Shown here: one piece after another, positions 1 to 10,544 of the stretch
Numbering within the stretch: position 1 is the stretch's first letter
Layout: each line of letters begins with the position of its first letter
Source: a virus
Taxonomy: Duplodnaviria > Heunggongvirae > Uroviricota > Caudoviricetes
Strand: one strand, 5' to 3'
DNA length: 10,544 nt
Virus record (IMG/VR): IMGVR_UViG_2579778804_000012
Span: 1 to 10,544 of that record
The notes under the pieces: model-generated
What the model was told of the DNA's origin: nothing
The model's input: only the letters and a program-made list of their open reading frames with translations
Database searches by the model: none
Position numbers and translations under genes: made by a program

Positions 1-1218
1 ATGAACAAACTGAGCGATACCTTGCTAAGGAAACTTCATGGTAAGCCAGCGGAGAAAAACACGTTTTATAGCGATGGCGGAAATCTGAGCGTGAAATATT
101 TAACATCAGGGAAATTAACCTGGTATTTCACTTACAGGGCAGGAACGGGAAGAGAGACACGACCGGAACGTATTAAGCTGGGAAATTATCCTGATCTGAG
201 CCTGAAAGCAGCCAGGGAAAAAGCCGCCCAGTGTCGCGCATGGCTGGCGGAGGGGAAAAATCCACGCCATGAGATGAATTACGCCGTACAGGAAGCGTTA
301 AAGCCGGTAACGGTTGGCGATGCGCTCACCTACTGGCTTGAGTCGTACGTAAAGGAAAACCGCGTGGATTATATCGCCCTGAAAAGGCGACTTAATAATC
401 ACGTAATACAGTACATTGGCGCTATGCCGCTGGATAAATGCGAGCTACGGCACTGGCTGGCCTGTTTTGACCAGGTGGCAAAGCGAACACCTGTTACTGC
501 CGGATTCGTGCTACAGACATGCAAGCAGGCGCTTAAGTTCTGCCGGAGGCGGCGCTTTGCAATCAGCAACGTTCTCGATGATCTGAACGTGGCGGACGTT
601 GGGAAAAAACCGGATATAAGCGAACGTGTCTTAAGCACCAAAGAACTGGGCGAGTTATTGCAGGCGCTGGATAAAAAAATATTTTCTCCTTACTACGTCG
701 CGTTAATCCGCCTCCTGATTGTCTTCGGAGCCAGGACGGTAGAACTGAGGTTATCGGAGATCAGCGAGTGGGATTTTACCGAAATGCTATGGACCGTTCC
801 GAAGGAGCACAGCAAAACGAAGGTTGCAATATTCCGGCCCATACCGGAAGCGATCCTGCCGTTCGTCACGCGGCTGGTGGACCAGAACAGGCACACGGGC
901 TTATTACTGGGGGAAGTGAAACAGGAGGCTAGCGTATCGCAGTACGGCAGATTAGCGCACAGGAGGCTAAAACACCCTCAATGGTCATTGCATGACATCC
1001 GGCGCACCTTTACAACCATGCTGAACGATTTAGGCGTTGATCCTCACGTCGTGGAGCAGCTTACAGGCCACCAGATGCCAGGAATGCAACGCGTGTACAA
1101 CCATTCCCGCTATATTGATGCGAAACGCAATGCGCTTGATATGTGGGTGGAGCGGTTGGAGATACTGGCGGGAACACATGAAAACGTAACCACGCTACCA
1201 GTAACCAGAATAAAATAA
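1..1218 (+). CDS. int: tyrosine integrase, P4-type (N-terminal arm-binding-like domain plus catalytic domain)
   Basis: 405-aa ORF. N-terminus LSDTLLRKL..GKPAEK..YSDGGNLSVKY..W.F.YR...LGNYPDLSLKAAREKA matches the P4-family integrase N-terminal pattern; C-terminus HDIRRTF....GHQMPGMQRVYNHSRY fits the H-x-x-R and catalytic Tyr region. Window begins exactly at its ATG. Confidence 0.9.
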   Translation: MNKLSDTLLRKLHGKPAEKNTFYSDGGNLSVKYLTSGKLTWYFTYRAGTGRETRPERIKLGNYPDLSLKAAREKAAQCRAWLAEGKNPRHEMNYAVQEALKPVTVGDALTYWLESYVKENRVDYIALKRRLNNHVIQYIGAMPLDKCELRHWLACFDQVAKRTPVTAGFVLQTCKQALKFCRRRRFAISNVLDDLNVADVGKKPDISERVLSTKELGELLQALDKKIFSPYYVALIRLLIVFGARTVELRLSEISEWDFTEMLWTVPKEHSKTKVAIFRPIPEAILPFVTRLVDQNRHTGLLLGEVKQEASVSQYGRLAHRRLKHPQWSLHDIRRTFTTMLNDLGVDPHVVEQLTGHQMPGMQRVYNHSRYIDAKRNALDMWVERLEILAGTHENVTTLPVTRIK

Positions 1219-1235
1219 TTTTTTTCGTGTTTTTT

Positions 1236-1251
1236 CAGTATGCGCATACTG
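1236..1251. promoter_or_regulatory. perfect 16-bp palindrome CAGTATGCGCATACTG just after the int stop; candidate protein-binding site or hairpin
   Basis: Self-complementary 16-mer read directly; preceded by a T-run (1221-1235). Confidence 0.4.
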
Positions 1252-1260
1252 GATAAGTGC

Positions 1261-1310
1261 ACAGATACAACGTGAAACAATGTGCAACAACGTGACACAA
1301 TCACGAACAA
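1261..1310. repeat. five tandem 10-bp phased units (acagatACAA cgtgaaACAA tgtgcaACAA cgtgacACAA tcacgaACAA); candidate DNA-binding array
   Basis: Exact 10-bp periodicity with invariant ACAA ends and GTGA/GTGC cores, read directly. Confidence 0.6.
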
Positions 1311-1401
1311 GAGGCCAAAAAGAATACAGATTTGTAAGCTACTGATTTTTAATGCTCAGCTGGTTTTTTATACATTAGTGAATTACGCGTTAAAGTGTGC
1401 G

Positions 1402-1438
1402 AAAAAAGGCATAAAACAAGATTTTATGCCTTTGTATT
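1402..1438. terminator. hairpin terminator candidate between int and alpA (stem GGCATAAAA/TTTTATGCC, A-run before, T-rich after)
   Basis: 9-bp perfect inverted repeat 1408-1416/1422-1430, loop caaga, followed by tttgtatt. Confidence 0.5.
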
Positions 1439-1592
1439 AACATGAATTTAAATGATTTTATCCTGATTATTCCTCTTTCTGTAAACCATGCGACACCAAC
1501 ATTTGCCAACTCTGAATCATCCTGACACAATCAGACACATCCCAACGCAATAGAACACGAAATAACTCTTTAAGAAACGAAAGGGGGCAATA

Positions 1593-1781
1593 GTGTTAAG
1601 CACTGATCGGTTTATACGTGAAAAAGAATGCGAAAAGCTAACAGGCCTTAGCCGCTCATGCCGCTACCGCCTGGAAAAGGCCGGACAATTCCCATCACGT
1701 CGTAAACTTGGTGGGCGTTCTGTTGGCTGGTCTTTATCTGAGGTTTTGGCCTGGAAGGATAGCTGCAAGGCAGTTCACTAA
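1593..1781 (+). CDS. alpA: AlpA-family transcriptional regulator / possible excisionase (GTG start)
   Basis: 62-aa ORF; LTGLSRSCRYRLEKAGQFPSRRKLGGRSVGWSLSEVLAWK matches the AlpA signature (TG.SR...Y......FP..RKLG.RSVGW...E...W). RBS AAGGGGG at 1581-1587. Confidence 0.8.
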   Translation: MLSTDRFIREKECEKLTGLSRSCRYRLEKAGQFPSRRKLGGRSVGWSLSEVLAWKDSCKAVH

Positions 1782-1920
1782 AAAGACTGGCGGCACACAG
1801 TCGCCACACATCCACTAATACAGAGATATAACTATGAAGATTGAATATGCGCCCGAACGTGGGCGGGGATTCGTTCGCCCTGGTGAAACTGAAAAACAAC
1901 AAAATTGGGGTTTTTCAGGC

Positions 1921-1950
1921 ATAAAAAAAGCGGCCCCGATATGGAGCCGC
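1921..1950 (-). terminator. candidate intrinsic terminator for the minus-strand small-gene operon (stem GCGGC/GCCGC, U-run on minus strand)
   Basis: Stem 1930-1934/1946-1950 with 11-nt loop; on the minus strand it is followed by the complement of the A-run at 1922-1929. About 75 nt below the stop of the 2025..2228 gene. Confidence 0.4.
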
Positions 1951-2024
1951 CTTTCTGAACAATTAACCTGCTGCGCCTTATGTGTATGTGATCCCAAACA
2001 TAAGCACGGGAATGATAGCCGCTA

Positions 2025-2228
2025 TCAGGCTGGTGGGCAATTACCTTGCTTGTTGGGGCCGTATTGTGCTGCCATTTTCATCCGTTCAGAACGTGAATAT
2101 TTTTTTAGAAACTCATCAAGGACAAAAGCGCATGGAGCGAATCTTTCTGATTCATGCTCGAGCGCCATATTTTCGTGCTCTCTGTTCGTTTTTTGCGATG
2201 GTGTATTGGTTGATTCTTTGTTGGTCAT
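2025..2228 (-). CDS. small acidic protein of unknown function (67 aa), paralog of the 2686..2913 gene
   Basis: Starts MTN.., shares FVLDEFLKKY with FALEDFVDKY in the paralog; identical 43-bp upstream element; RBS AGGT 8 nt upstream. Confidence 0.5.
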   Translation of the reverse strand: MTNKESTNTPSQKTNREHENMALEHESERFAPCAFVLDEFLKKYSRSERMKMAAQYGPNKQGNCPPA

Positions 2229-2237
2229 TGTGTGTAC

Positions 2238-2280
2238 CTGTAAAGCAATGCGCCGGAGTTCCTCACGCCACGGCGCTGAT
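2238..2280. repeat. 43-bp element, copy a (100% identical to 2923-2965), intergenic upstream of the MTN-type gene
   Basis: ctgtaaagcaatgcgccggagttcctcacgccacggcgctgat read identically at both sites; contains inverted repeat GCGCCG..CGGCGC. Confidence 0.9.
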
Positions 2281-2285
2281 GTTTT

Positions 2286-2465
2286 TTATTCTTTGGGTTC
2301 AATACCGCGTTGCTGTAATTCTTTTCGGATTATTCGTTTTATCCAAGCTGCTAAAGAGTCATCACCGTCTTGTTGTTGTGCTTTTTCCATCTTTTCCCGT
2401 AAGTCAGGATCTAAACGGAACTGGAAAGGAGGATTACCACGCCTTTCATTTTTGTGTGTTGACAC
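2286..2465 (-). CDS. Arc/MetJ-type ribbon-helix-helix DNA-binding protein candidate (59 aa from GTG; 34 aa if ATG at 2390)
   Basis: Minus-strand translation ..RRGNPPFQFRLDPDLREKMEKAQQQDGDDSLAAWIKRIIRKELQQRGIEPKE fits the Arc-like strand-helix-helix pattern; RBS GGGGTG 8 nt upstream of the GTG. Absent from the supplied ORF track (non-ATG start, under 60 aa). Confidence 0.45.
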   Translation of the reverse strand: MSTHKNERRGNPPFQFRLDPDLREKMEKAQQQDGDDSLAAWIKRIIRKELQQRGIEPKE

Positions 2466-2486
2466 GTCAATTACACCCCATATAAT
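2459..2486 (+). promoter_or_regulatory. consensus sigma70-type promoter: TTGACA (2459-2464), 16-bp spacer, TATAAT (2481-2486)
   Basis: Both hexamers are perfect consensus with near-optimal spacing; it overlaps the start region of the minus-strand Arc-like gene. Confidence 0.55.
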
Positions 2487-2492
2487 GTGTTT

Positions 2493-2508
2493 ATGTGTAT
2501 ATACACAT
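2493..2508. promoter_or_regulatory. perfect 16-bp palindrome ATGTGTATATACACAT immediately downstream of the -10; candidate operator
   Basis: Self-complementary 16-mer read directly, at about +1 to +20 of the promoter above. Confidence 0.5.
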
Positions 2509-2530
2509 TACACACAACTAGCACAAAAAA

Positions 2531-2599
2531 CAACGCCCCGCAGTGATGGGAACACATACGGGGCGTCTAACCAAACCATTAATTGAGGTAACGATTATG
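2531..2599. ncRNA. structured element copy 1: 7-bp GC stem CGCCCCG/CGGGGCG with 18-nt loop, conserved tail TCTAACCAAACC, RBS and ATG GCT; leader RNA on plus strand and/or terminator on minus strand
   Basis: Stem 2534-2540/2559-2565. On the minus strand it is followed by TTGTTTTTTGTG (terminator-like). On the plus strand it precedes GAGG, then ATG at 2597. Homologous to 3398-3466. Confidence 0.4.
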
Positions 2600-2685
2600 G
2601 CTATAAAAGAGCATAGCTTACTCTTTATACACACACAAACGCCCCGGAAACGGAATAATCCGTTTCATAGTTCGGTTTTGTGCAC

Positions 2686-2913
2686 TCATCCTGGCGGTCG
2701 GTTTTTGCCGGATTTAAGCCGCCGTGGGTATTTATCGACAAAATCTTCAAGGGCAAATTTTTCTGGTGGCACTAAGCGCGGCGCTGGTGGTGGTATTTTT
2801 GTTCTGGTTAGTTCTTCCTCAAGTCTGGCGCAGGCTTCTGACTGCCTTTGCCGGATGATTTCATCATCTTGCGTTTGCGTGTCTTGTATTGGTGATAGTG
2901 TGTTGTTGGTCAT
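2686..2913 (-). CDS. small acidic/proline-rich protein of unknown function (75 aa), paralog of the 2025..2228 gene
   Basis: Starts MTNN.., contains FALEDFVDKY; preceded by the 43-bp element copy b. Confidence 0.55.
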   Translation of the reverse strand: MTNNTLSPIQDTQTQDDEIIRQRQSEACARLEEELTRTKIPPPAPRLVPPEKFALEDFVDKYPRRLKSGKNRPPG

Positions 2914-2922
2914 GTTACTGCC

Positions 2923-2965
2923 CTGTAAAGCAATGCGCCGGAGTTCCTCACGCCACGGCGCTGAT
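2923..2965. repeat. 43-bp element, copy b (100% identical to 2238-2280)
   Basis: Identical 43-mer between the RHH gene stop (2971) and the downstream gene start (2913). Confidence 0.9.
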
Positions 2966-2970
2966 AGTGA

Positions 2971-3277
2971 TTATTCTGATTCTTTGGCCTTGCGGCGCTG
3001 GAGTTCTTCGCGTGCGATGGCGATAAGTTGCCCGAGTTCTTCCGTAGCTTTAATACCAATTTTTTCCACTTGCGCCAATGCATCGAGAGAAGAAATCAGA
3101 GGATTTTCACTGCTTCCTTCTGCCTGGCGGCGGGCGATCTCCCCGCGCATGGCGGTTACTATGAATCCGGCGTTGCTTTCGCCGTCCAGTTTTACGGATT
3201 CCATGCCATCAAAAGCATCATGTGGGATACGAATTGAAATCTGTTTTGATTTGTCGTTGATAGTGTTTTTTGCCATG
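2971..3277 (-). CDS. ribbon-helix-helix (Arc/CopG-like) DNA-binding protein candidate, 101 aa from the MAKNT start
   Basis: KQISIRIPHDAFDGMESVKLDGESNAGFIVTAMRGEIARRQ fits the RHH pattern. Start moved from the track ATG at 3315 to the ATG at 3277, which sits 6 nt after RBS AGGAGA. C-terminus resembles the Arc-like paralog (IAREELQRRKAKESE vs IRKELQQRGIEPKE). Confidence 0.6.
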
Positions 3278-3298
3278 TGCATTCTCCTAAACAAAAGA

Positions 3299-3376
3299 TG
3301 TGATTCAGTATACACAAAAAAGAATCACAAAAAACACTTGACCTGTGATTCAGTTGAATTTAATTTAAATCACACC
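3299..3376. promoter_or_regulatory. operator-like cluster: TGTGATTCAGT direct repeats (3299-3309, 3344-3354) plus inverted half-sites GAATCACA (3322-3329) and AATCACAC (3368-3375); weak candidate promoter TTGACC at 3338-3343
   Basis: Repeated motif in both orientations in the divergent region between the RHH gene and the Icd-like gene. Confidence 0.4.
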
Positions 3377-3397
3377 TCAGTAAGAGGATGTAAACGA

Positions 3398-3463
3398 CAA
3401 CGCCCCGAACTGTTTGCGGCAGTAGCGGGGCGTCTAACCAAACCGTTAACAGGAGTAACGATT
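3398..3463 (+). ncRNA. structured leader copy 2: stem CGCCCCG/CGGGGCG (3401-3407/3426-3432), 18-nt loop, tail TCTAACCAAACC, RBS AGGAG, then ATG GCT; candidate c4/CI-like regulatory RNA or 5'-UTR element
   Basis: Same stem, tail and RBS/start block as copy 1 but a different loop; no U-run on the minus strand, so a plus-strand role is favoured here. Confidence 0.4.
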
Positions 3464-3664
3464 ATGGCTGGAACACAGCATACCCCACGTCTGGCGCACA
3501 CACAAACTGCCTTTGTGTGGCGTTTTCTGGCCCTGAGTGCCGGAGAATCTCAAATCATCCACGTAACCGCCTGGACGGAACGCGAAGCGCGTAACCGTTG
3601 CCCGTCCGGTTGTGTTGCTGTATTCGCTGCCCGTATTCGCCAGGGGGAAACCTATGCACAATAA
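3464..3664 (+). CDS. small protein (66 aa) in the position of Icd-like (host cell division inhibitor-like) proteins of P4-type elements; identity tentative
   Basis: MAGTQHTPRLAHTQTAFVWRFLALSAGESQ...; good RBS; follows the structured leader. The first 15 aa are homologous to the truncated start at 2597 (MAIKEHSLLFIHTQT). Confidence 0.5.
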   Translation: MAGTQHTPRLAHTQTAFVWRFLALSAGESQIIHVTAWTEREARNRCPSGCVAVFAARIRQGETYAQ

Positions 3665-3884
3665 AACCACACCGGACGCAGCAGAAGAAGCAATGCAAAT
3701 ACTGATACGTGCGCTCGTTGATGTTACCCACATGGTGGAGAGCATGGAGAGAAAATCACAGTCGGAGCACGACAAAAGAAAACTTAAAACAATAAAAATA
3801 ATTGCCAAAAACTCGCTGATAAAAGTTACAGACATCCTTAATGAGGACATTAAAAGAATAAGGGAGAAAATTTGTGATGCATAA
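3654..3884 (+). CDS. hypothetical small protein (76 aa), AT-rich gene
   Basis: ATG at 3654 with RBS AGGGGG 6 nt upstream; overlaps the Icd-like stop; lysine-rich, low GC. Confidence 0.5.
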   Translation: MHNKTTPDAAEEAMQILIRALVDVTHMVESMERKSQSEHDKRKLKTIKIIAKNSLIKVTDILNEDIKRIREKICDA

Positions 3885-4104
3885 AATCCCTTTTGAAGTA
3901 TTAATCCACTCTGAAAACGCATTAATTAAAGCACGCGAAATGAATGCGTTGTTAATTAAATTAATTGAAGTGCCGGAAGGTGGTGAAGAATCAGGTGTAT
4001 TAATGTTTGCAGCCATTCAGACATTACTATCGCCTGTTATTGATGAACTGGATAAGGCAATGGCAATTCACGAGAATAATAACTCGCCCCACACCGGAGA
4101 ATAA
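3874..4104 (+). CDS. hypothetical small protein (about 75 aa), AT-rich gene
   Basis: GTG 3874 / ATG 3877 after RBS AAGGGAG; start overlaps the stop of the previous gene. Confidence 0.5.
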   Translation: MMHKIPFEVLIHSENALIKAREMNALLIKLIEVPEGGEESGVLMFAAIQTLLSPVIDELDKAMAIHENNNSPHTGE

Positions 4105-4109
4105 AAATA

Positions 4110-4409
4110 ATGAAACTTAAATATTCTGGCTTAACTGCCAGTGGCAACACTCACCCTAAATTTACGCGCGGTGATATTTACCGCGACCAGTACGGCGGCA
4201 CGGTAATGATTAAGGGCGTGGCGGGACGGTGCGTAACTTACCGCCGTGAAGGTTACGAATATGATTGCGTGATGCCTGTTTATCAGTTCCGGCGTGATTT
4301 TTCTCTGGTACAGACCGCGCCGCATAACGTGCCCACCAGCAACGCCAGGGCACGGGCAAACATCCAGAAGCTGAAAACCATGATTAACGGATTCAGGGGT
4401 AAAAAATGA
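4110..4409 (+). CDS. hypothetical protein (99 aa), translationally coupled to the helicase gene
   Basis: RBS GGAGA 9 nt upstream; its stop overlaps the helicase ATG (ATGA). Confidence 0.6.
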   Translation: MKLKYSGLTASGNTHPKFTRGDIYRDQYGGTVMIKGVAGRCVTYRREGYEYDCVMPVYQFRRDFSLVQTAPHNVPTSNARARANIQKLKTMINGFRGKK

Positions 4410-5815
4410 AACTGGCACCGAACGTAAAACTATTACCGAAAGACAAATACACCGATGCGATTATTTTTGCGGGTATTGATGCTCACTCATTCGCAGAGCA
4501 TTACATCATTGCACAGGCCAAAAAAGCAGGCGATCCAGTCCCTCCCGTTTATCTGGGGCGTTATCAGTTAAGCGAACTGGATAACCTCCAGATTGTTGAT
4601 GATGGGCGATACAGGGCGACGGTGATACGCGCCGGAAATATTGAAGAGCCGCAGCTGTTAACCATCGCCACGAAACTGGCGATCGCCGGAGTCCAGGAGG
4701 CGCGGCTACTTTCTGAAAATTTCGAATTGCTGGAGGAATGGAGCGACCAGCTTCCACGGCTTAGGGAGGCATGGGAACGCGGGGAAAGCCTGGTCATGAA
4801 AAAAATCCCCCAGCGAAAAACCACGCTACCGATGAGCGTTGGATCTACCGGATACGACACACAGCTTGATTACGTGGTAAAGGGGATTATTCCGGCATCG
4901 TCGCTTTGCAGCATATACGGGGCGAGCGGTTCCTATAAATCATTCCTTGCCGGATCGTGGGCGTGTCACGTTTCCACGGGCCGCCAGTGGGGAGGCCGCA
5001 GGGTGGCGCATGGCGCTGTTCTCTATGTGGTTGGTGAAGGCGGTATCGGCGTTCCGCGTCGTGTAAAAGCCTGGGAGGTTGTGCACGGTGAGCAGGTGAA
5101 AAATCTGTATCTGGTAAACCGTCCCATCTTTCCGGCGGTCCCGCTTGATGTTGATGAAATGGTTATCGCTGCCCGTCAGGTGGAGCGGGAAACGGGTAAA
5201 CCTGTACGCATGATTATTCTGGATACGCTGGCGCGTTGCTTTGGTGGGAATGATGAAAATGATTCCCGTGATATGGGGGCGTTTATCCGTGGTTGTGACG
5301 AACTGAAACGACGCACAGGGGCCACGGTGCTGGTGGTTCACCATTCCGGCAAGGATGAGACGAAAGGCGCGCGCGGTTCCAGTGCATTTCGTGCATCACT
5401 GGATGCTGAATACCGGATACGCAGGGAGGACGCAGGAAGCGAAGCGCTGGTTATCTCATGCACCAAAATGAAGGACGCGGAGGAACTCAAAGAAGCCGCA
5501 TATGACTTACGCGTGGTGGAGCTGTTTACCGACGCTGACGGGGAGTTAATCACGTCGCTGGTGGTGGTGGATAAGCCGCGCCCTCCCGTTGAACTGGAAC
5601 GCATCGAGGAGGCAGGCAACAAGACGGAAAACCATACCGCACTATGGGGGTGCATCCGTTCACGCACACAGAACGGCGACAAGTGCACGATCCCGCTGTT
5701 ACGTGATGACATGAAACGGCTTGGGTATGACGTGAAAAATATGCGGCGATGGTTAGCCAAACTGGAAAAAGACGCCGTGATTTACATTGATGGTGATGAT
5801 GTAGGACCACTGTAA
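4406..5815 (+). CDS. RepA-like replicative helicase / RecA-fold AAA ATPase with C-terminal DNA-binding region
   Basis: 469 aa; Walker A GASGSYKS, Walker B-like VRMIILDTLAR, then VLVVHHSGKD; an iteron array lies immediately downstream. Confidence 0.85.
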   Translation: MKLAPNVKLLPKDKYTDAIIFAGIDAHSFAEHYIIAQAKKAGDPVPPVYLGRYQLSELDNLQIVDDGRYRATVIRAGNIEEPQLLTIATKLAIAGVQEARLLSENFELLEEWSDQLPRLREAWERGESLVMKKIPQRKTTLPMSVGSTGYDTQLDYVVKGIIPASSLCSIYGASGSYKSFLAGSWACHVSTGRQWGGRRVAHGAVLYVVGEGGIGVPRRVKAWEVVHGEQVKNLYLVNRPIFPAVPLDVDEMVIAARQVERETGKPVRMIILDTLARCFGGNDENDSRDMGAFIRGCDELKRRTGATVLVVHHSGKDETKGARGSSAFRASLDAEYRIRREDAGSEALVISCTKMKDAEELKEAAYDLRVVELFTDADGELITSLVVVDKPRPPVELERIEEAGNKTENHTALWGCIRSRTQNGDKCTIPLLRDDMKRLGYDVKNMRRWLAKLEKDAVIYIDGDDVGPL

Positions 5816-6015
5816 AAAGTGAGTAGCAAAAGTGAGTAATGGTGAGGTTTTTACAAAATATTAACACGATTACTCACTTTCTCACCTGTATACATGCTCA
5901 AAAGTGAGGAGTAAAAAAATCCTTATGAAACACACACATAAAGCATCAAAAAATATCAAGTGAGACGAAGCGAGACGCTTTAAAAAGTGAGGTGTAAAAG
6001 TGAGCATGAGTGAGG
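5816..6015. repeat. iteron array, putative replication origin: at least 9 copies of (A)AGTGAG in both orientations with AT-rich spacers
   Basis: GTGAG at 5819, 5832, 5842, 5904, 5960, 5987, 6000, 6010; inverted CTCAC at 5874 and 5881; AT-rich stretches 5850-5870 and 5911-5957. Confidence 0.6.
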
Positions 6016-6269
6016 AGATAACCAAAATGCGCAGAGACAGAACAGAGCCGAAATATAAAGCGTTAGACATGACAGAGCACGCCTTAAAGGTGGCAATCAG
6101 GGTAATAGACCGCCACGCGGGGGAAGGATACGCGAAGGAGCATCCCGAACTGATAAGCGCATTCATGACCACAGCGGCGGCAAACTTTGCCACGCTGACA
6201 GAGCGGGAGATTGCGGAAGCTGAACAGGTGACAACCATCAACGTTAAAAACGTAGAGGTGGAATCATGA
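6000..6269 (+). CDS. hypothetical protein (about 87-89 aa)
   Basis: GTG 6000 or ATG 6006 after GAGG; its stop overlaps the ssb-like start. Confidence 0.55.
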   Translation: MSMSEEITKMRRDRTEPKYKALDMTEHALKVAIRVIDRHAGEGYAKEHPELISAFMTTAAANFATLTEREIAEAEQVTTINVKNVEVES

Positions 6270-6688
6270 CAGCACAGATAGCGGCTTACGGGCGGCTGGT
6301 GGCTGACCCACAGTTAAAGACCACCAGCAAGGGCACACAAATGACGATGGCGAGTATGGCTGTCCCCCTGCCGTGCAGCCAGGCAGATGACGGAACGGCT
6401 ACGATGTGGTTATCCGTCCTGGCGTTTGGCAGACAGGCCGACGCACTGGCAAAACACCGCAAAGGCGAGCTGGTGAGCGTGGCGGGTAACATGCAGGTAA
6501 GCCAGTGGACAGGCCAGAACGGCGAAACGCGGCAGGGCTGGCAGGTTATCGCAGACAGCGTAATCAGTGCGAGAACGGCGCGACCGGGCGGCAAAAAAGG
6601 CCAGCAGGGGCAGGCTACTGACGCACTGAACAGGGCAAAACAACAGGCGGGGAATGATGATCCGTACGGGGATAACATACCGTTTTAA
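6266..6688 (+). CDS. ssb: single-stranded DNA-binding protein (SSB-like, short form)
   Basis: 140 aa; N-terminal OB-fold-like region, Gly/Gln-rich linker, and C-terminal acidic tip DDPYGDNIPF resembling the SSB D-I-P-F tail. Confidence 0.7.
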   Translation: MTAQIAAYGRLVADPQLKTTSKGTQMTMASMAVPLPCSQADDGTATMWLSVLAFGRQADALAKHRKGELVSVAGNMQVSQWTGQNGETRQGWQVIADSVISARTARPGGKKGQQGQATDALNRAKQQAGNDDPYGDNIPF

Positions 6689-6702
6689 GCAACGAGTGAC
6701 AG

Positions 6703-6727
6703 AAGCCGGAGAAATCCGGCTTTTTTG
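6703..6727 (+). terminator. rho-independent terminator after ssb (GCCGGA gaaa TCCGGC + TTTTTT)
   Basis: 6-bp GC stem, 4-nt loop, 6-T run, read directly. Confidence 0.7.
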
Positions 6728-6732
6728 TAGGT

Positions 6733-6880
6733 ACTCCTGGTGGGGGTGCCTGTCCACGGGGCGGCGGGGCGCGGAAAAAGGCGCATTTTTTGATTTTTAT
6801 GGCACCATCACCACCACTATAAGTTATTGATATATTGAGGAATAAAAATTTTTAGTGTCGAATCAGGTTGTTTTTTGTTC
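6733..6880. repeat. ~150-bp element, copy A: GC-rich core CTCCTGGTGGGGGTGCCTGTCCACGGGGCGGCGGGGCGCGGAAAAAGGCGCATTTTTT, His-codon-like CATCACCACCAC tract, ending GGTTGTTTTTTGTTC
   Basis: Aligns block by block with 9270-9420; both copies sit immediately after an intrinsic terminator. Confidence 0.7.
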
Positions 6881-7154
6881 ATCACTGGAGCGTTCCCGAA
6901 AGCATTTACAAAAAAACAGGCGCAAAAAAAGCGCCCCCGATTGCTGTTACCGGAGGCGCTTTTACACGACAAAGGAGTTTTTATCGCCAGGATGACGAGT
7001 CTTAATATTGCTTCAATAGCAAAAATGCGTCAATGGCTTTGCCTCTCTGAGAATAATCAGAAAAATCATAATCTGATTTTATGGTAGAAAATGATTTATC
7101 TATTACTTTTGTCGATCAATAATGATGCCCGTTAATCAAAACGGAGGCGGATTT

Positions 7155-7349
7155 ATGCCAGAGAACAACACCAGAAAGCCGGATAAAAGTGCCACGGTAC
7201 ACATAGACGCCGGAACTATGGAGAAGATCGAACGCTATCAGCAGTTCATCAAAGATAATCACCCGGGTATGCCAGTGCCCACGAAAGGACAAATCACACG
7301 CAGCGCGGTTGAATACTGGTACAGGGCAACGTTAGGAGCCTGGCTATGA
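7155..7349 (+). CDS. small protein (64 aa), possible RHH-type regulator, translationally coupled to the capsid gene
   Basis: ATG 7155 is 7 nt after RBS GGAGG (the track ORF starts earlier at 7122); its stop overlaps the ATG at 7346. Confidence 0.5.
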   Translation: MPENNTRKPDKSATVHIDAGTMEKIERYQQFIKDNHPGMPVPTKGQITRSAVEYWYRATLGAWL

Positions 7350-9235
7350 AAACATGGTTTTCCATTAAGGCTATGGCAGATGTTGTACATGTGCGCATTT
7401 ATGACGAGATCGGCGGGTACGGTGTAAAGGCATCGGCACTTACTGACGAGATCAACGCGTGCGGTAATGTGTCTGAAATCCATCTGAGCATTCATTCACC
7501 TGGTGGCGACATCTTTGAAGGGCTGGCTATCTATAACGCTCTGAAAAATCATCCGGCAAAAAAAATCGTACACATTGAAGGCATGGCGGCTTCTATGGCG
7601 TCGTTTATTGCCATGTGTGGAGATCACATCGTTATGCCTGAAAACGCGATGATGATGATACATGCCCCCCGTGGTGTTACTGCCGGAGTGTCGGGCGACG
7701 TTCGCCGCTTTGCTGATCTGATGGACAAGCTGGGCGACACGATGGCAGAAACCTATGCCGGAAGAACGGGCAGGAGCAAACAGGAGATCACCTCCATGAT
7801 GGAGGCGGAAACCTGGATGGATGGCAATGAGTGTAAGGCTAACGGCTTCGCAGATGAGGTTATACCCGCGATTACAGCAATGGCCCGAATTGAATCAAAA
7901 CGAATCGGAGATTTTTCAAATATGCCGGAAAAAATTAAAAGCATGATCAGCCAGAAAACTGGCAGTGGCGAACAGGAACGACTTAACGGAATCCGTGAAT
8001 TGTTTGGCACCTTCAACGGAAGATATAACGACCTGGCTATAAGTTGTCTTGCGGATTCAGAATGTAGCGTTGAGAATGCACGCGAACGCCTTTTACTCGC
8101 TATGGGTAAAGAATCAACGCCAACAAACAAAACCACCCCCGCAAATCTTTACTACGCGTACACGGATAACGGCAATATAACCGGCGATGCCATGCGTCAG
8201 GGGCTTAATGCGCGTCTTGGTCACGAACGGGCCGAACGCGGTAATCCTTACGCCATGATGAGCCTTTTCGATATGGCACAGGCATCATTAACCCATCGTG
8301 GTATAAGCACGGGCAGCTACAGCACACGCTCGCAGATAGTAAACGCGGCATTCACCCACAGCAGCAGCGATTTTACCGATATCCTTGCTGGTGGCGCTGA
8401 AAAATCAGTGCTTGCAGGCTGGGAGCACAGCGGCGAAACATTCCGCCAGTGGACGAAAAAAGGTTCCCTTTCAAACTTCCGGGAAGCCCGCCGCGTTGGT
8501 ATGAATGGCTTCTCAACGTTAAACAAAGTGCCGGAAGGGGCAGAATATAAATACATCACCACCAGCGATCGCGGTGAACCCATCGCGCTGGCTACTTACG
8601 GGAATATTTTCAGCATTACCCGCCAGGCGATAATCAATGATGACCTTGATCAGTTATCAACGGTGCCAATGGCTATGGGCCGTGCAGCATCAAGAACGGT
8701 GGGAAATCTGGTTAATCTGGTGCTTACAGGCAACGTAAAACTTTCTGACGGAATAGCGCTGTTTGACAAAAAACACAGCAACCTGATTGAAGCAGGACTG
8801 ACAACACCGGGACTTAGTGCAGCACGTCACCTGATGCGCACACAGAAGGACAAAAATGGCGAAGTGCTGAATATTGCGCCTAAATTCCTTTTAGTTCCGG
8901 CAGCACTGGAAGATCGCGCGTTGCAGATGATTAACTCAACCGCACCTTTCGGGGCTGATAAAAACAGCGGGATCTTTAACCCGTATCACAAGCTACTTGA
9001 TATCATCGTCGATCCCCGCCTTGATGATATCAGCGAAAAACAATGGTACATGCTTTCCGCACAGGGAACGGACACAATCGAGGTGGCTTATCTTGATGGC
9101 AATGACGAACCTTACCTTGAACAGCAGGAAGGCTTTATCGTTGACGGCGTGGCCTGGAAAGTCCGTATTGATGCAGGTGTGGCAGCTCTGGATTATCGCG
9201 GTATGGTCAAATCAGGCGGTACCGATTCACTATGA
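7346..9235 (+). CDS. prohead protease (ClpP/S14-like) fused to a probable major capsid protein, with a scaffold-like linker
   Basis: 629 aa; N-terminal 170 aa IHSPGGDIFEGLAIYNALKNH...HIEGMAASMASFIAMCGDHIVMPENAMMMIHAP matches the phage ClpP-like head-maturation protease pattern; the C-terminal ~400 aa is inferred to be capsid from size and context, not from a recognised motif. Confidence 0.75.
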   Translation: MKTWFSIKAMADVVHVRIYDEIGGYGVKASALTDEINACGNVSEIHLSIHSPGGDIFEGLAIYNALKNHPAKKIVHIEGMAASMASFIAMCGDHIVMPENAMMMIHAPRGVTAGVSGDVRRFADLMDKLGDTMAETYAGRTGRSKQEITSMMEAETWMDGNECKANGFADEVIPAITAMARIESKRIGDFSNMPEKIKSMISQKTGSGEQERLNGIRELFGTFNGRYNDLAISCLADSECSVENARERLLLAMGKESTPTNKTTPANLYYAYTDNGNITGDAMRQGLNARLGHERAERGNPYAMMSLFDMAQASLTHRGISTGSYSTRSQIVNAAFTHSSSDFTDILAGGAEKSVLAGWEHSGETFRQWTKKGSLSNFREARRVGMNGFSTLNKVPEGAEYKYITTSDRGEPIALATYGNIFSITRQAIINDDLDQLSTVPMAMGRAASRTVGNLVNLVLTGNVKLSDGIALFDKKHSNLIEAGLTTPGLSAARHLMRTQKDKNGEVLNIAPKFLLVPAALEDRALQMINSTAPFGADKNSGIFNPYHKLLDIIVDPRLDDISEKQWYMLSAQGTDTIEVAYLDGNDEPYLEQQEGFIVDGVAWKVRIDAGVAALDYRGMVKSGGTDSL

Positions 9236-9240
9236 CAACA

Positions 9241-9264
9241 AGGCGGCACCAGCCGCCTTTTTTG
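9241..9264 (+). terminator. rho-independent terminator after the capsid gene (GGCGGC acca GCCGCC + TTTTTT)
   Basis: 6-bp GC stem, 4-nt loop, 6-T run. Confidence 0.7.
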
Positions 9265-9269
9265 CGGGT

Positions 9270-9420
9270 CCTCCTGGTGGGGTGGGCCTGAACACGGGGC
9301 GGGCGGCGCGGAAAAAAGCGCATTTTTGTGATTTTATCGTCATCATCATCATGTGTGTAACCTATTGTTTTTAATGTGGTTGATGCAAAAAAGATGATGA
9401 AGAAGGTTATTTTTTGTTCG
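9270..9420. repeat. ~150-bp element, copy B (homolog of 6733-6880)
   Basis: CTCCTGGTGGGGTGGGCCTGAACACGGGGCGGGCGGCGCGGAAAAAAGCGCATTTTTG, then CATCATCATCAT, then GGTTATTTTTTGTTCG. Confidence 0.7.
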
Positions 9421-9492
9421 ACATCTTTTAGCGTGACAGATTCTTTACAAAAAATCTGAGCTTGTTTTCTTCACCAGCGCGATGGGGGCACA

Positions 9493-9774
9493 ATGACAGA
9501 AGCCGAAATACTGGGATTAATCCGCCGCGTCGCCGGAATCAGCCAGCAGGTTGACGAACAGGCCACGCAGCCGGACAGCATGACCGCAGATAATTATGTG
9601 CGTGTAGTGGTGGAGGTGATGCGCGGTGATGGTATCCAGCTTAATGATGTGGATATGCGCAACATACGAACCAGAGTCCTTGAGTTGCTGGCATACCGTC
9701 GCCGCGTGGAGATGTATCGGGAGAAGGAGAAAATCACGTACCACTGGAAGAAGCCGGAGCGGTTACGGCGGTAA
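9493..9774 (+). CDS. hypothetical protein (93 aa), downstream of the capsid gene
   Basis: ATG with GGGGG 4 nt upstream; charged, arginine-rich C-terminus; function not recognisable. Confidence 0.55.
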   Translation: MTEAEILGLIRRVAGISQQVDEQATQPDSMTADNYVRVVVEVMRGDGIQLNDVDMRNIRTRVLELLAYRRRVEMYREKEKITYHWKKPERLRR

Positions 9775-9888
9775 CTTGTTGATTAAAAGGCGGCTCAATT
9801 CTGAGCTGGGTAGCTGACGGCGGTAACTGTTTTATATTCCCGATAGCGCAAAAATGCGCGGTCGGGCAGAATGACCACCACCTCAATC

Positions 9889-9930
9889 GTGACGGAGAGT
9901 GACAACCAGTGACACACCGTGACAAAAAGA
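9889..9930. repeat. four tandem 10-bp phased GTGAC units (GTGACggaga GTGACaacca GTGACacacc GTGACaaaaa)
   Basis: Exact 10-bp phasing read directly; same motif family as the 1261-1310 array. Confidence 0.6.
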
Positions 9931-9975
9931 CGGTTTAACCGTTCATTAAAAATCGACGTGATTTTGTGCTATCAG

Positions 9976-10000
9976 GATGACGTGGCCAACGTCATTTTTT
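9976..10000 (+). terminator. intrinsic terminator candidate (GATGACGT ggcca ACGTCAT + T-run)
   Basis: 7-8-bp stem followed by TTTTTT at 9995-10000. Confidence 0.5.
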
Positions 10001-10391
10001 AGCGAAAAATTCTGATTAAGGTCACTGGCTGAATGGTCATAATGACCACGCAGACCATCGAGGCAACCATAGCGATCATCGTTACGGTTGGAGCTTTTCC
10101 GCCATTGGTGGAAAAGGTGCACATCTGGATCATCATTACGGTGATCAAGGGTATGTAAAACCCACCAGCCTGATTAAATGTTAACCGGAAAAAAAATCCG
10201 GTAGCCCCGTTATGGGAATCCCCATATCGACAGCAACGCCCCCTTAAAATTACCCGCCTTTATATTTCTTGTGCCTATTTGTTCCACGTTGTTTCATACA
10301 GTGCGCCGAACGGTGTAGTCACTGGTGTAGTTATTTTGAGTTTTTTTGCACTTCGGGCTTAATTGAAAATATAATTAAATCAATATGTTAT

Positions 10392-10544
10392 TCAAAATAG
10401 GTTATATATAACAGCAATAAATAATGCGAGAATAAACGGCACGATGATCTCGGCGGCAAAACGGATACCGCAGAGAATAATGACCAGCATTCCCAACATA
10501 ATGACGATTTTTAGGCCATTGAGCGTGATGATCGGCTTTGCCAT
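10392..10544 (-). pseudogene. 5' fragment of a membrane transporter gene (51 codons, 46-aa hydrophobic N-terminus); TqsA/PerM-like from memory, unverified
   Basis: Minus-strand ATG at the window edge encodes [46 protein letters not shown], then YNLF and a stop at 10392-10394; far shorter than a full transporter. Confidence 0.45.

Follow-up and report, generated by a model that had tools for sequence, protein, structure and literature searches.

Four repeated sites as the probable operator of a divergently encoded YlcI/YnfO-family protein in a PICI-type phage satellite

Introduction

The stretch of Caudoviricetes DNA analyzed here (IMG/VR record IMGVR_UViG_2579778804_000012, positions 1 to 10,544; its full 10,544 nucleotides are called the window) contains four copies of TGTGATT(C) between ylcI, which codes on the - strand for a 101-amino-acid protein of the YlcI/YnfO family, and an Icd-like gene that opens a rightward replication operon. 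By its gene content, the window is a phage satellite similar to phage-inducible chromosomal islands (PICIs) that carries part of a capsid module. The locus raises the question of which protein reads these copies and which genes would be controlled through them. Gram-negative PICIs are induced through AlpA, and a global repressor was not known according to the founding paper (PMC6092414). With AlpA as the sole established regulator of Gram-negative phage-inducible islands, a repressor-type gene with an operator on the promoter of the replication operon would make this question directly testable, in specificity classes that are recognizable from the sequence. A first-pass annotation had located the four direct and inverted copies correctly, and had proposed them as the operator of the adjacent 101-amino-acid protein in a divergent arrangement. 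In our analysis, co-variation of the site core with the N-terminus of the protein and the overlap of the sites with two putative promoters support this proposal. We consider it probable (about 0.78) that the four copies of TGTGATTC, read as AATCACA in the inverted ones, serve as operator for the YlcI/YnfO-family protein, the product of the divergent gene ylcI in this PICI-type satellite.

The four sites and the putative promoters they overlap

The site stretch lies between the start of ylcI on the - strand and the ATG of the Icd-like gene at 3464, and the elements of this region are the following:

2971 to 3276, - strand: ylcI, 101-amino-acid YlcI/YnfO-family gene, the proposed repressor gene (NCBIfam NF041551; PGAP WP_001107606.1)
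3299 to 3306, + strand: site 1, TGTGATTC, exact; next to the putative leftward -10 and over the predicted ylcI transcription start
3307 to 3312, - strand: putative -10 of the leftward ylcI promoter, TATACT
3322 to 3329, - strand: site 2, GAATCACA on the + strand, exact TGTGATTC; inverted partner of site 1, 15 nt off, in the spacer of the putative leftward promoter
3338 to 3366, + strand: putative rightward promoter P_R, with -35 TTGACC (3338-3343), a 17-bp spacer and -10 TAATTT (3361-3366)
3344 to 3351, + strand: site 3, TGTGATTC, exact; begins right after the rightward -35
3367 to 3374, - strand: site 4, AAATCACA on the + strand, 7/8 match; begins one base past the rightward -10 and covers the predicted transcription start
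3464 to 3664, + strand: Icd-like gene, first of the rightward operon (NCBIfam NF033153, E=5e-18)

The whole window contains three exact matches to TGTGATTC, against 0.40 +/- 0.69 expected from dinucleotide shuffles, and no exact copy is found elsewhere. The 7-mer TGTGATT/AATCACA is exact in 4/4 sites, and one-mismatch matches outside the 76-bp stretch are at chance level (13 versus ~9.5 expected). The sites are spaced 23, 22 and 23 bp from centre to centre and alternate in orientation (-> <- -> <-). The pair unit, a site followed after 15-16 nt by an inverted site, recurs at a 45-bp period, with TGTGATTCAGT at 3299 and 3344 and AATCACA at 3323 and 3368. Clustering alone is suggestive evidence for function. 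At least three exact copies were reached somewhere in the window in 2 of 200 shuffles, a frequency that lends something to the view that the repeats arose by chance or are functionless remnants of neutral duplication. That view is refuted by conservation: position, number and orientation of the sites are kept over eight genera with diverged flanks, and the sites change in a concerted, class-specific way. Because of this conservation and concerted variation in relatives, we regard the four sites as not due to chance, and the probability of that explanation as close to nil. An Rfam search of the operator region found nothing.

The repeated sites overlap core elements of both putative promoters, since sites 3 and 4 abut the -35 and -10 of P_R and sites 1 and 2 flank the leftward TAnnnT. 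P_R, which would drive the leader and the Icd-like/DUF4222/RepA operon, reaches a consensus score of 8/12, and its TTGAC and TAAnnT elements stand at a constant 17-bp spacing in all classes and genera aligned. For the leftward promoter, classes A, B, C, E, and F (see below) keep a TAnnnT beside site 1. The transcription starts predicted from these elements fall at ~3372-3374 on the + strand and ~3300 on the - strand. Two class-A loci from IMG/VR with the four sites intact show rightward -35 variants in place of TTGACC (TTTACC in L015 and TTTGCC in L018), which may be promoter-down alleles.

Site cores co-vary with the N-terminus of the adjacent protein

Homologs of ylcI are present in 654 of 5,426 complete Escherichia coli genomes (~12%). 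Around 145 related loci from eight genera were compared, taken from complete E. coli genomes, one genome per species (5 loci), IMG/VR contigs, and contigs encoding chosen homologs. In classes A, B, D, and E, four repeats with a class-specific core stand at the same offsets from the ylcI ATG (23+, 46-, 68+, 91-). In the 15 distinct class-A upstream regions, site 1 is always at offset 23 and site 3 at offset 68 (15/15). The classes, each with its N-terminal protein strand, are:

Class A: strand KSKQISIRIP; sites 1 to 4 TGTGATTC, RAATCACA, TGTGATTC and AAATCACA; 35 loci, 15 distinct regions
Class B (E. coli, Xenorhabdus, Photorhabdus): strand KSQLTTVRVP; sites 1 to 4 TGTGTTTC, GAAATACA, TGTGTTTC and GAAACACA
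Class C: strand KSQMTTIRVP; TGTATATC-type copies
Class D: strand KSQQLNARFP; core GGTATTCA, site 1 degenerate, sites 2 to 4 GTGAATACCA, TGGTATTCAC and CTGAATACCA
Class E (E. coli, Enterobacter, Klebsiella): strand KSQSLTARIP; sites 1 to 4 TGTAAGAC, GTCTTACA, TGTAAGCC and TACTTACA

The association between site core and N-terminal strand was perfect in every locus examined. When each region was searched for the cores of all classes, the own-class core gave 3-4.4 near-matches per region and those of other classes ~0-1, except for A and B, which are one-base neighbours. At core position 5, all four sites have A in 15/15 class-A regions and T in 7/7 class-B regions, and since this change is concerted over four sites, linkage alone is not a sufficient explanation. 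Other components of the locus do not follow the site class. The C-terminal variants of YlcI and the Icd types are shuffled among classes, one Icd type being found in classes A, C, and F, a second one in A, B, E, and F.

These pairings also bear on the idea that another factor binds the sites, namely AlpA, the Icd-like protein, a replication initiator acting on iterons or an origin, or host CRP or IHF. In its favour, TGTGA and TCACA are the words of CRP half-sites, Icd-like proteins fall in PHROG families labelled 'transcriptional repressor', and AlpA is required for PICI induction (PMC6092414). CRP, AlpA, the Icd-like protein, and iterons were considered and rejected. For CRP, the TGTGA...TCACA spacing is 21 nt versus the N6 dyad, and other E. 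coli classes are devoid of TGTGA (e.g., TGTAAGAC). An identical AlpA accompanies different site classes (L003 and L005), the same Icd-like type occurs with several, and class A is paired with two unrelated replicases, the RepA type of this island and a DUF927 primase in Serratia. Host factors offer no explanation for class-specific cores within one species, and the island contains no further exact copies. Binding by such a factor is therefore very improbable.

Two predictive comparisons agreed with the operator assignment. Class-A strands of Serratia, Edwardsiella, Yersinia, and Klebsiella were picked before their DNA was seen, and all of them were preceded by the four TGTGATT(C) sites with unchanged offsets, set in an unrelated 5' untranslated region and leader. 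Class E in Klebsiella and Enterobacter likewise kept its own four sites. In the reverse direction, the pattern TGTGATTC-N14-17-RAATCACA-N12-16-TGTGATTC was scanned in 2.9 million IMG/VR viral contigs. It returned 39 stretches, of which 39/39 lay directly upstream of a class-A gene, NDKS(K/R)QISIRIP, and 39/39 had the fourth site. Among 107 loci the site-pair pattern occurred in 35, all of class A.

Site-specific imperfections are conserved as well: site 4 in nearly all class-A loci, site 2 of class B (GAAATACA), and sites 3 and 4 of class E. Conserved imperfect copies are as expected for graded affinities.

A fifth site is present in some relatives. Edwardsiella L099 and L100 have TGTGATTC at offset 113, exactly one more 45-bp period; the E. 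coli class-B loci L002 and L040 have GAAATACA at offset ~113, and class-C loci have TGTATCTCACA at offset 110. The window has only a poor match at this position (ATGTAAAC, 3388-3395).

The 101-amino-acid protein

Through its residues 9-50, the ylcI product matches the NF041551 model over positions 1-42 of 42, scoring 65.7 bits where the cut-off is 30 (E=2.8e-18). Its start codon is best placed at the ATG at 3276 (complement of 3274-3276), seven bases after AGGAGA (AGGAG being the complement of 3284-3288), since an alternative ATG at 3282 would abut the Shine-Dalgarno sequence. In the protein alignment the body is conserved from residue 18 on, and residues 2-17 come in discrete versions. At the DNA level, most of the 654 E. 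coli homologs cease to resemble ylcI ~45-50 nt short of the start codon (query nt ~255-262 of 306). The segment concerned is:

3226 to 3276, - strand: hypervariable cassette, codons 1-17 of ylcI, MAKNTINDKSKQISIRI, co-varying with the site core

The AlphaFold2 (AF2) monomer model has an extended N-terminus (residues ~7-17) followed by helices at 19-28, 35-54, and 59-100, with a mean pLDDT of 77.5 for the full length, 85.2 for residues 1-56, and ~90 for residues 11-50. This order of elements is compatible with a ribbon-helix-helix (RHH) monomer with a C-terminal extension; the strand of RHH proteins forms only in the dimer. The variation linked to specificity maps to residues 2-17, which is where an RHH strand and N-terminal arm are predicted to contact DNA. 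An hhalign comparison placed R16-x-P18 on R13-x-P15 of Arc, with low probability.

PHROG 949 covers residues 1-56, and the extra conserved ~45 C-terminal residues correspond to PHROG 6522. The 42-residue N-terminal domain, NF041551, is common to this protein and to K-12 YlcI (DLP12) and YnfO (Qin); the additional C-terminal part distinguishes the satellite proteins from the K-12 ones. A segment of this part, residues 60-86 (window 3019-3099; LDALAQVEKIGIKATEEL), is conserved, with invariant I73 and G74. It gave a borderline PDB profile match to the helix-hairpin-helix of Hef (1x2i; E=0.013, residues 46-86), where AF2 instead predicts the continuous helix 59-100; a helix-hairpin-helix for residues 60-86 is a weak alternative reading of the region. 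No homolog was found by tblastn of the 101-amino-acid protein against 50,697 deposited phage genomes, and a literature search on YlcI/YnfO found no functional study or operator. YlcI/YnfO proteins have been named as accessory genes of capsid-forming PICIs (cf-PICIs) without a function (PMC13612085).

A model for repression at the divergent promoters

What was observed are the sites, their register, their concerted variation by class, and the exclusive tie of each core to one N-terminus; binding, its stoichiometry, repression, autoregulation, and the relief of repression are inferred. The N-terminal domain of the protein would most likely be RHH (strand ~10-17, helices at 19-28 and 35-54), followed by a long helix at the C-terminus (59-100). 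One dimer would read each 8-bp site through its N-terminal strand and arm, and four dimers would sit on sites about two helical turns apart, joined perhaps by the C-terminal helices. Sites 3 and 4 would sandwich the -10 of P_R, the promoter of the Icd-like/replication operon, and sites 1 and 2 that of the ylcI promoter. Occupancy would then occlude both promoters, shutting the replication/packaging operon and limiting synthesis of the protein itself. The ~15 N-terminal codons and the four sites would change jointly as a single specificity cassette (at least 5-8 alleles), which would let different satellites, or the two stacked modules of this island, be controlled independently.

How such a lock would be opened is a more tentative matter. 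The protein might keep the Icd/replication/packaging operon off until the helper-induced AlpA pathway, perhaps via BRO/AntA genes between alpA and ylcI, lifts repression. The cassette of ~15 codons and four sites would then make 'heteroimmune' satellite classes, and two-module islands would stack two locks in series. We hold this extended scenario to be possible, with odds below even. BRO/AntA antirepressor genes flank ylcI in L002, L004, and L098-L104.

Observations that weigh against the operator assignment

Several observations count against the assignment of the sites to the YlcI/YnfO-family protein, or against parts of it, and they concern the promoters, the protein, and the architecture of the sites. 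As to the promoters, the leftward -35 position holds a poor GTTTTT (complement of 3330-3335), and a consensus promoter scan of the window called neither promoter of module 2, the regulatory module that contains ylcI. Since neither reached the scan threshold, both promoters were deduced from conservation. The combination of a good -10 (TATACT) with no -35 is typical of activator-dependent promoters, and could mean that the protein acts as a switch, activating its own promoter from site 2 while P_R is repressed. Lambda CI behaves in this way at PRM/PR, activating its own promoter and repressing the other. The conserved, site-specific weaker copies would agree with a switch. In a variant of this idea, the bound protein would be a roadblock or insulator against read-through from module 1, the upstream regulatory module of the island, whose perfect promoter (2459-2486) points through module 2. 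Site 1, however, covers the predicted leftward start and abuts the -10, normally a repressing position, and we regard a switch, activator or roadblock role as rather unlikely.

As to the protein, no PDB sequence or profile search gave an RHH match. Foldseek found nothing significant with the full-length AF2 model against PDB and BFVD, or with residues 1-56 against PDB. In hhalign comparisons, Arc was matched at E=0.004 with a probability of 8.7% and Mnt with a probability of 0.8%. Pfam PF07704 stayed below its cut-off (E=0.017 for the 101-amino-acid protein, E=0.001-0.017 in 21/27 members). No RHH model or structure was thus matched significantly, and the RHH fold is a likely but putative one.

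The PF07704 match is of the VapB antitoxin type, as is a sub-threshold match of the module-1 protein (NF050799, E=0.012), and these weak similarities suggest another explanation. In a type II toxin-antitoxin or addiction cassette, the YlcI-like protein would be the antitoxin and the product of the downstream open reading frame (ORF) the toxin, and the sites would serve only for conditional autoregulation and not for control of the life cycle. The gene order would suit such a cassette, an RHH-like gene being followed by a small ORF on the same strand. In 62 of 96 evaluable loci, ylcI is followed by a partner ORF of the ERFAPCAF.LE.FLKEY type; in the other 34/96, none occurs within 120 nt. Searches of Pfam, NCBIfam, and PHROGs matched this partner ORF to no toxin family. 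The promoter of the opposite operon carries two of the four sites, which a toxin-antitoxin autoregulator would not need there, and the place of the ylcI module, between alpA/antirepressor genes and icd-pri, never varies. We judge a toxin-antitoxin cassette improbable. If the protein did only autoregulate a small accessory operon, the four sites would be an ordinary operator.

As to the architecture, the site spacing of 22-23 bp is unlike canonical RHH operators, in which subsites are about one turn apart. In loci whose strand has K13-N14 (L004, L006, L096, and L097; QMKNIRF, QLKNIRI, QIKNVRV) the sites are oriented -> -> <- <- in the same 23-bp register. Their GTGTGTA(T)-type sites, some fully palindromic (TGTGTACACA), have cores similar to the palindrome in module 1 of the window. 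Additional direct copies of the site are found in class C. The architecture is, on both counts, not uniform. Over the 76 bp, the site columns are not statistically enriched in between-class differences (Fisher tests not significant for A-B and A-E, p=0.02 for B-E), since the stretch that separates sites 3 and 4 varies too. In addition, one A-run indel shifts site 2, and for both reasons we relied on the evidence of concerted change and association instead of on the Fisher tests. Finally, the N-terminal codons are only ~25-100 bp from the sites, so part of the association could reflect physical linkage.

Comparison with known repressor/operator systems

With the sites assigned to the YlcI/YnfO-family protein, the locus would be a further case of the familiar repressor/operator cassette at divergent promoters with allelic specificities, made distinctive by the wide, regular spacing of four sites and by a very compact cassette. 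The Arc and Mnt proteins of phage P22 (immI) are small RHH repressors whose operators lie on back-to-back divergent promoters and which are autoregulated. The ylcI product resembles them in being a small protein with a putative N-terminal recognition strand, an R-x-P signature, a G-x-S-x-N loop and a proposed operator on divergent promoters, located in an 'immunity' region of a mobile element beside antirepressor genes. Mnt has a C-terminal helical tetramerization domain, to which helix 59-100 might be comparable. Each Arc/Mnt operator is one element of 17-21 bp whose two subsites are separated by about one turn, whereas here there are four 8-bp sites 22-23 bp apart over 76 bp, and the 101-amino-acid protein has no significant sequence or structure match to either repressor.

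The Omega repressor of inc18 plasmids (pSM19035) binds as one RHH dimer per 7-bp heptad, WATCACW, in direct and inverted arrays. Both systems have a non-palindromic 7-8-bp unit in both orientations with several copies per promoter, and class-A AATCACA fits WATCACW. Omega is a precedent for the recognition of an asymmetric unit of this kind by a symmetric RHH dimer. The Omega heptads, in contrast, are contiguous (7-bp register) and its protein is devoid of a long C-terminal helix, while the units described here are two turns apart. No homology is evident, and the word match may be a coincidence, as other classes use other cores.

Lambdoid heteroimmunity (CI/Cro with OR/OL) likewise involves discrete specificity alleles, graded operator variants, and mosaic exchange on a conserved scaffold. 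In both cases a change in the recognition element is accompanied by matching changes in several operator copies, with graded position-specific variants; the DNA-binding fold is different, and the cassette here is far smaller (~15 codons and ~100 bp). In its genomic layout the locus resembles Stl/Rpr, the master repressors of Gram-positive PICIs, including Staphylococcus aureus pathogenicity islands (SaPIs). In those helper-dependent satellites (PMC6092414) the regulator is divergent from the xis/pri-rep/packaging operon that it controls, and int lies alongside. Stl/Rpr differ in being large helix-turn-helix proteins, unrelated in sequence, that are inactivated by helper-phage proteins. The Gram-negative prototype EcCIEDL933 contains no ylcI module, and alpA, an ORF, and icd are co-directional in it. 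The allelic series described here, with at least five strand/site pairs on the same scaffold, some of them one base apart, would offer a ready-made system for studying a recognition code, and could supply orthogonal repressor/operator pairs.

A second regulatory module, the leader, and the partner ORF

The window contains two tandem regulatory modules, module 1 (2025-2685) and module 2 (2686-3463), with a shared layout. Each combines a small ORF with a minus-strand RHH-like gene and a rightward promoter, and both have the same leader, whose last bases are ATGGCT. The first module stops a few codons into an Icd-like start (ATG 2598), and module 2 begins there. The exact two-module stack occurs in 4 of 5,426 E. 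coli genomes. The elements of module 1 are:

2286 to 2465, - strand: gene for a 59-amino-acid RHH-like protein, strand PFQFRLD
2459 to 2486, + strand: perfect promoter, TTGACA-16-TATAAT, the counterpart of P_R
2493 to 2508: palindrome ATGTGTATATACACAT
2533 to 2566: leader hairpin

The first-pass annotation had suggested that the two modules differ in specificity. This is reasonable, because the module-1 protein strand (PFQFRLD) and DNA element (ATGTGTATATACACAT) differ from those of module 2 on an otherwise homologous promoter/leader scaffold. Besides its sub-threshold NF050799 similarity, the 59-amino-acid protein matches PHROG 228 'Arc-like repressor' (1.5e-6) and NF041551 (5e-4), which suggests an indirect link of the YlcI family to RHH proteins. 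Transcription starting at the module-1 promoter would cross ylcI in the antisense direction and reach the module-2 operator.

The leader of the Icd-like operon was compared over window 3396-3463 with its relatives in 30 distinct homologous leaders (L002-L092), and comprises the following elements:

3375 to 3463, + strand: leader of the Icd-like operon
3400 to 3407 and 3426 to 3433, + strand: hairpin 1, ACGCCCCG / CGGGGCGT
3434 to 3440, + strand: invariant CTAACCA, between the hairpins
3444 to 3448 and 3456 to 3460, + strand: hairpin 2, CGTTA / TAACG, with the Shine-Dalgarno sequence AGGAG (3451-3455) in its loop

RNAalifold on these leaders gave 13 pairs, 5 of them with compensatory changes, and the leader may be a post-transcriptional control element. 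Rfam, including antisense RNAs of the C4/CI type, gave no leader match at E<=1 for the window or at E<=10 for 3280-3480.

The small ORF of module 2 is:

2686 to 2913, - strand: 75-amino-acid partner ORF downstream of ylcI, predicted to be probably co-transcribed with it

No family match was found for it in Pfam, NCBIfam or PHROGs. Its characteristic motif is FALEDFVDKYPRR in module 2 and FVLDEFLKKYSRS in module 1 (2025-2228), and in most relatives ERFAPCAF.LE.FLKEY follows a basic stretch. The module-1 partner ORF belongs to PHROG 21027.

Gene content of the island

The window matches 100% to the chromosome of E. coli 89-3156, where the 10.5-kb island interrupts tqsA, an AI-2 transporter gene. 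Its PICI-like character is apparent in the int, alpA, pri/rep order, a size within the 10-17-kb range of such islands, an insertion in tqsA, as islands of this kind have dedicated att sites, and a gene set without lysis or tail genes. Apart from the regulatory modules, the main genes are:

1 to 1218: integrase
1593 to 1781: AlpA-family regulator (PF05930, E=5e-18)
4110 to 4409, + strand: DUF4222
4406 to 5815, + strand: RepA/AAA_25 protein

In the rightward operon the Icd-like gene is followed by two small ORFs, DUF4222, and RepA/AAA_25, and the ORFs overlap or adjoin through 5815. Farther 3' of the RepA-like gene are an SSB gene and a fusion of ClpP-type prohead protease and major capsid protein (629 amino acids, 7346-9235). 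No portal, terminase or head-tail gene is annotated in the stretch after this fusion (window 9236-10390), before the tqsA remnant, so the island is not a complete cf-PICI. A capsid fusion without these genes looks like a reduced capsid-forming satellite, or one with another packaging strategy.

Upstream of alpA, positions 1369-1447 (+ strand) gave a sub-threshold Rfam match to the Brucella sRNA BSnc120 (27.9 bits versus a gathering threshold of 114, E=0.005); the region holds an AT-rich hairpin, and the match is probably spurious. Open frames of 250 (1834-2586) and 373 (2543-3664) amino acids lie on the + strand, antisense to the genes of both RHH modules, and continue in frame into the Icd-like gene. 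They are probably an annotation trap and not genes; in locus L007, a similar stretch was annotated by PGAP as an Icd-like pseudogene overlapping ylcI.

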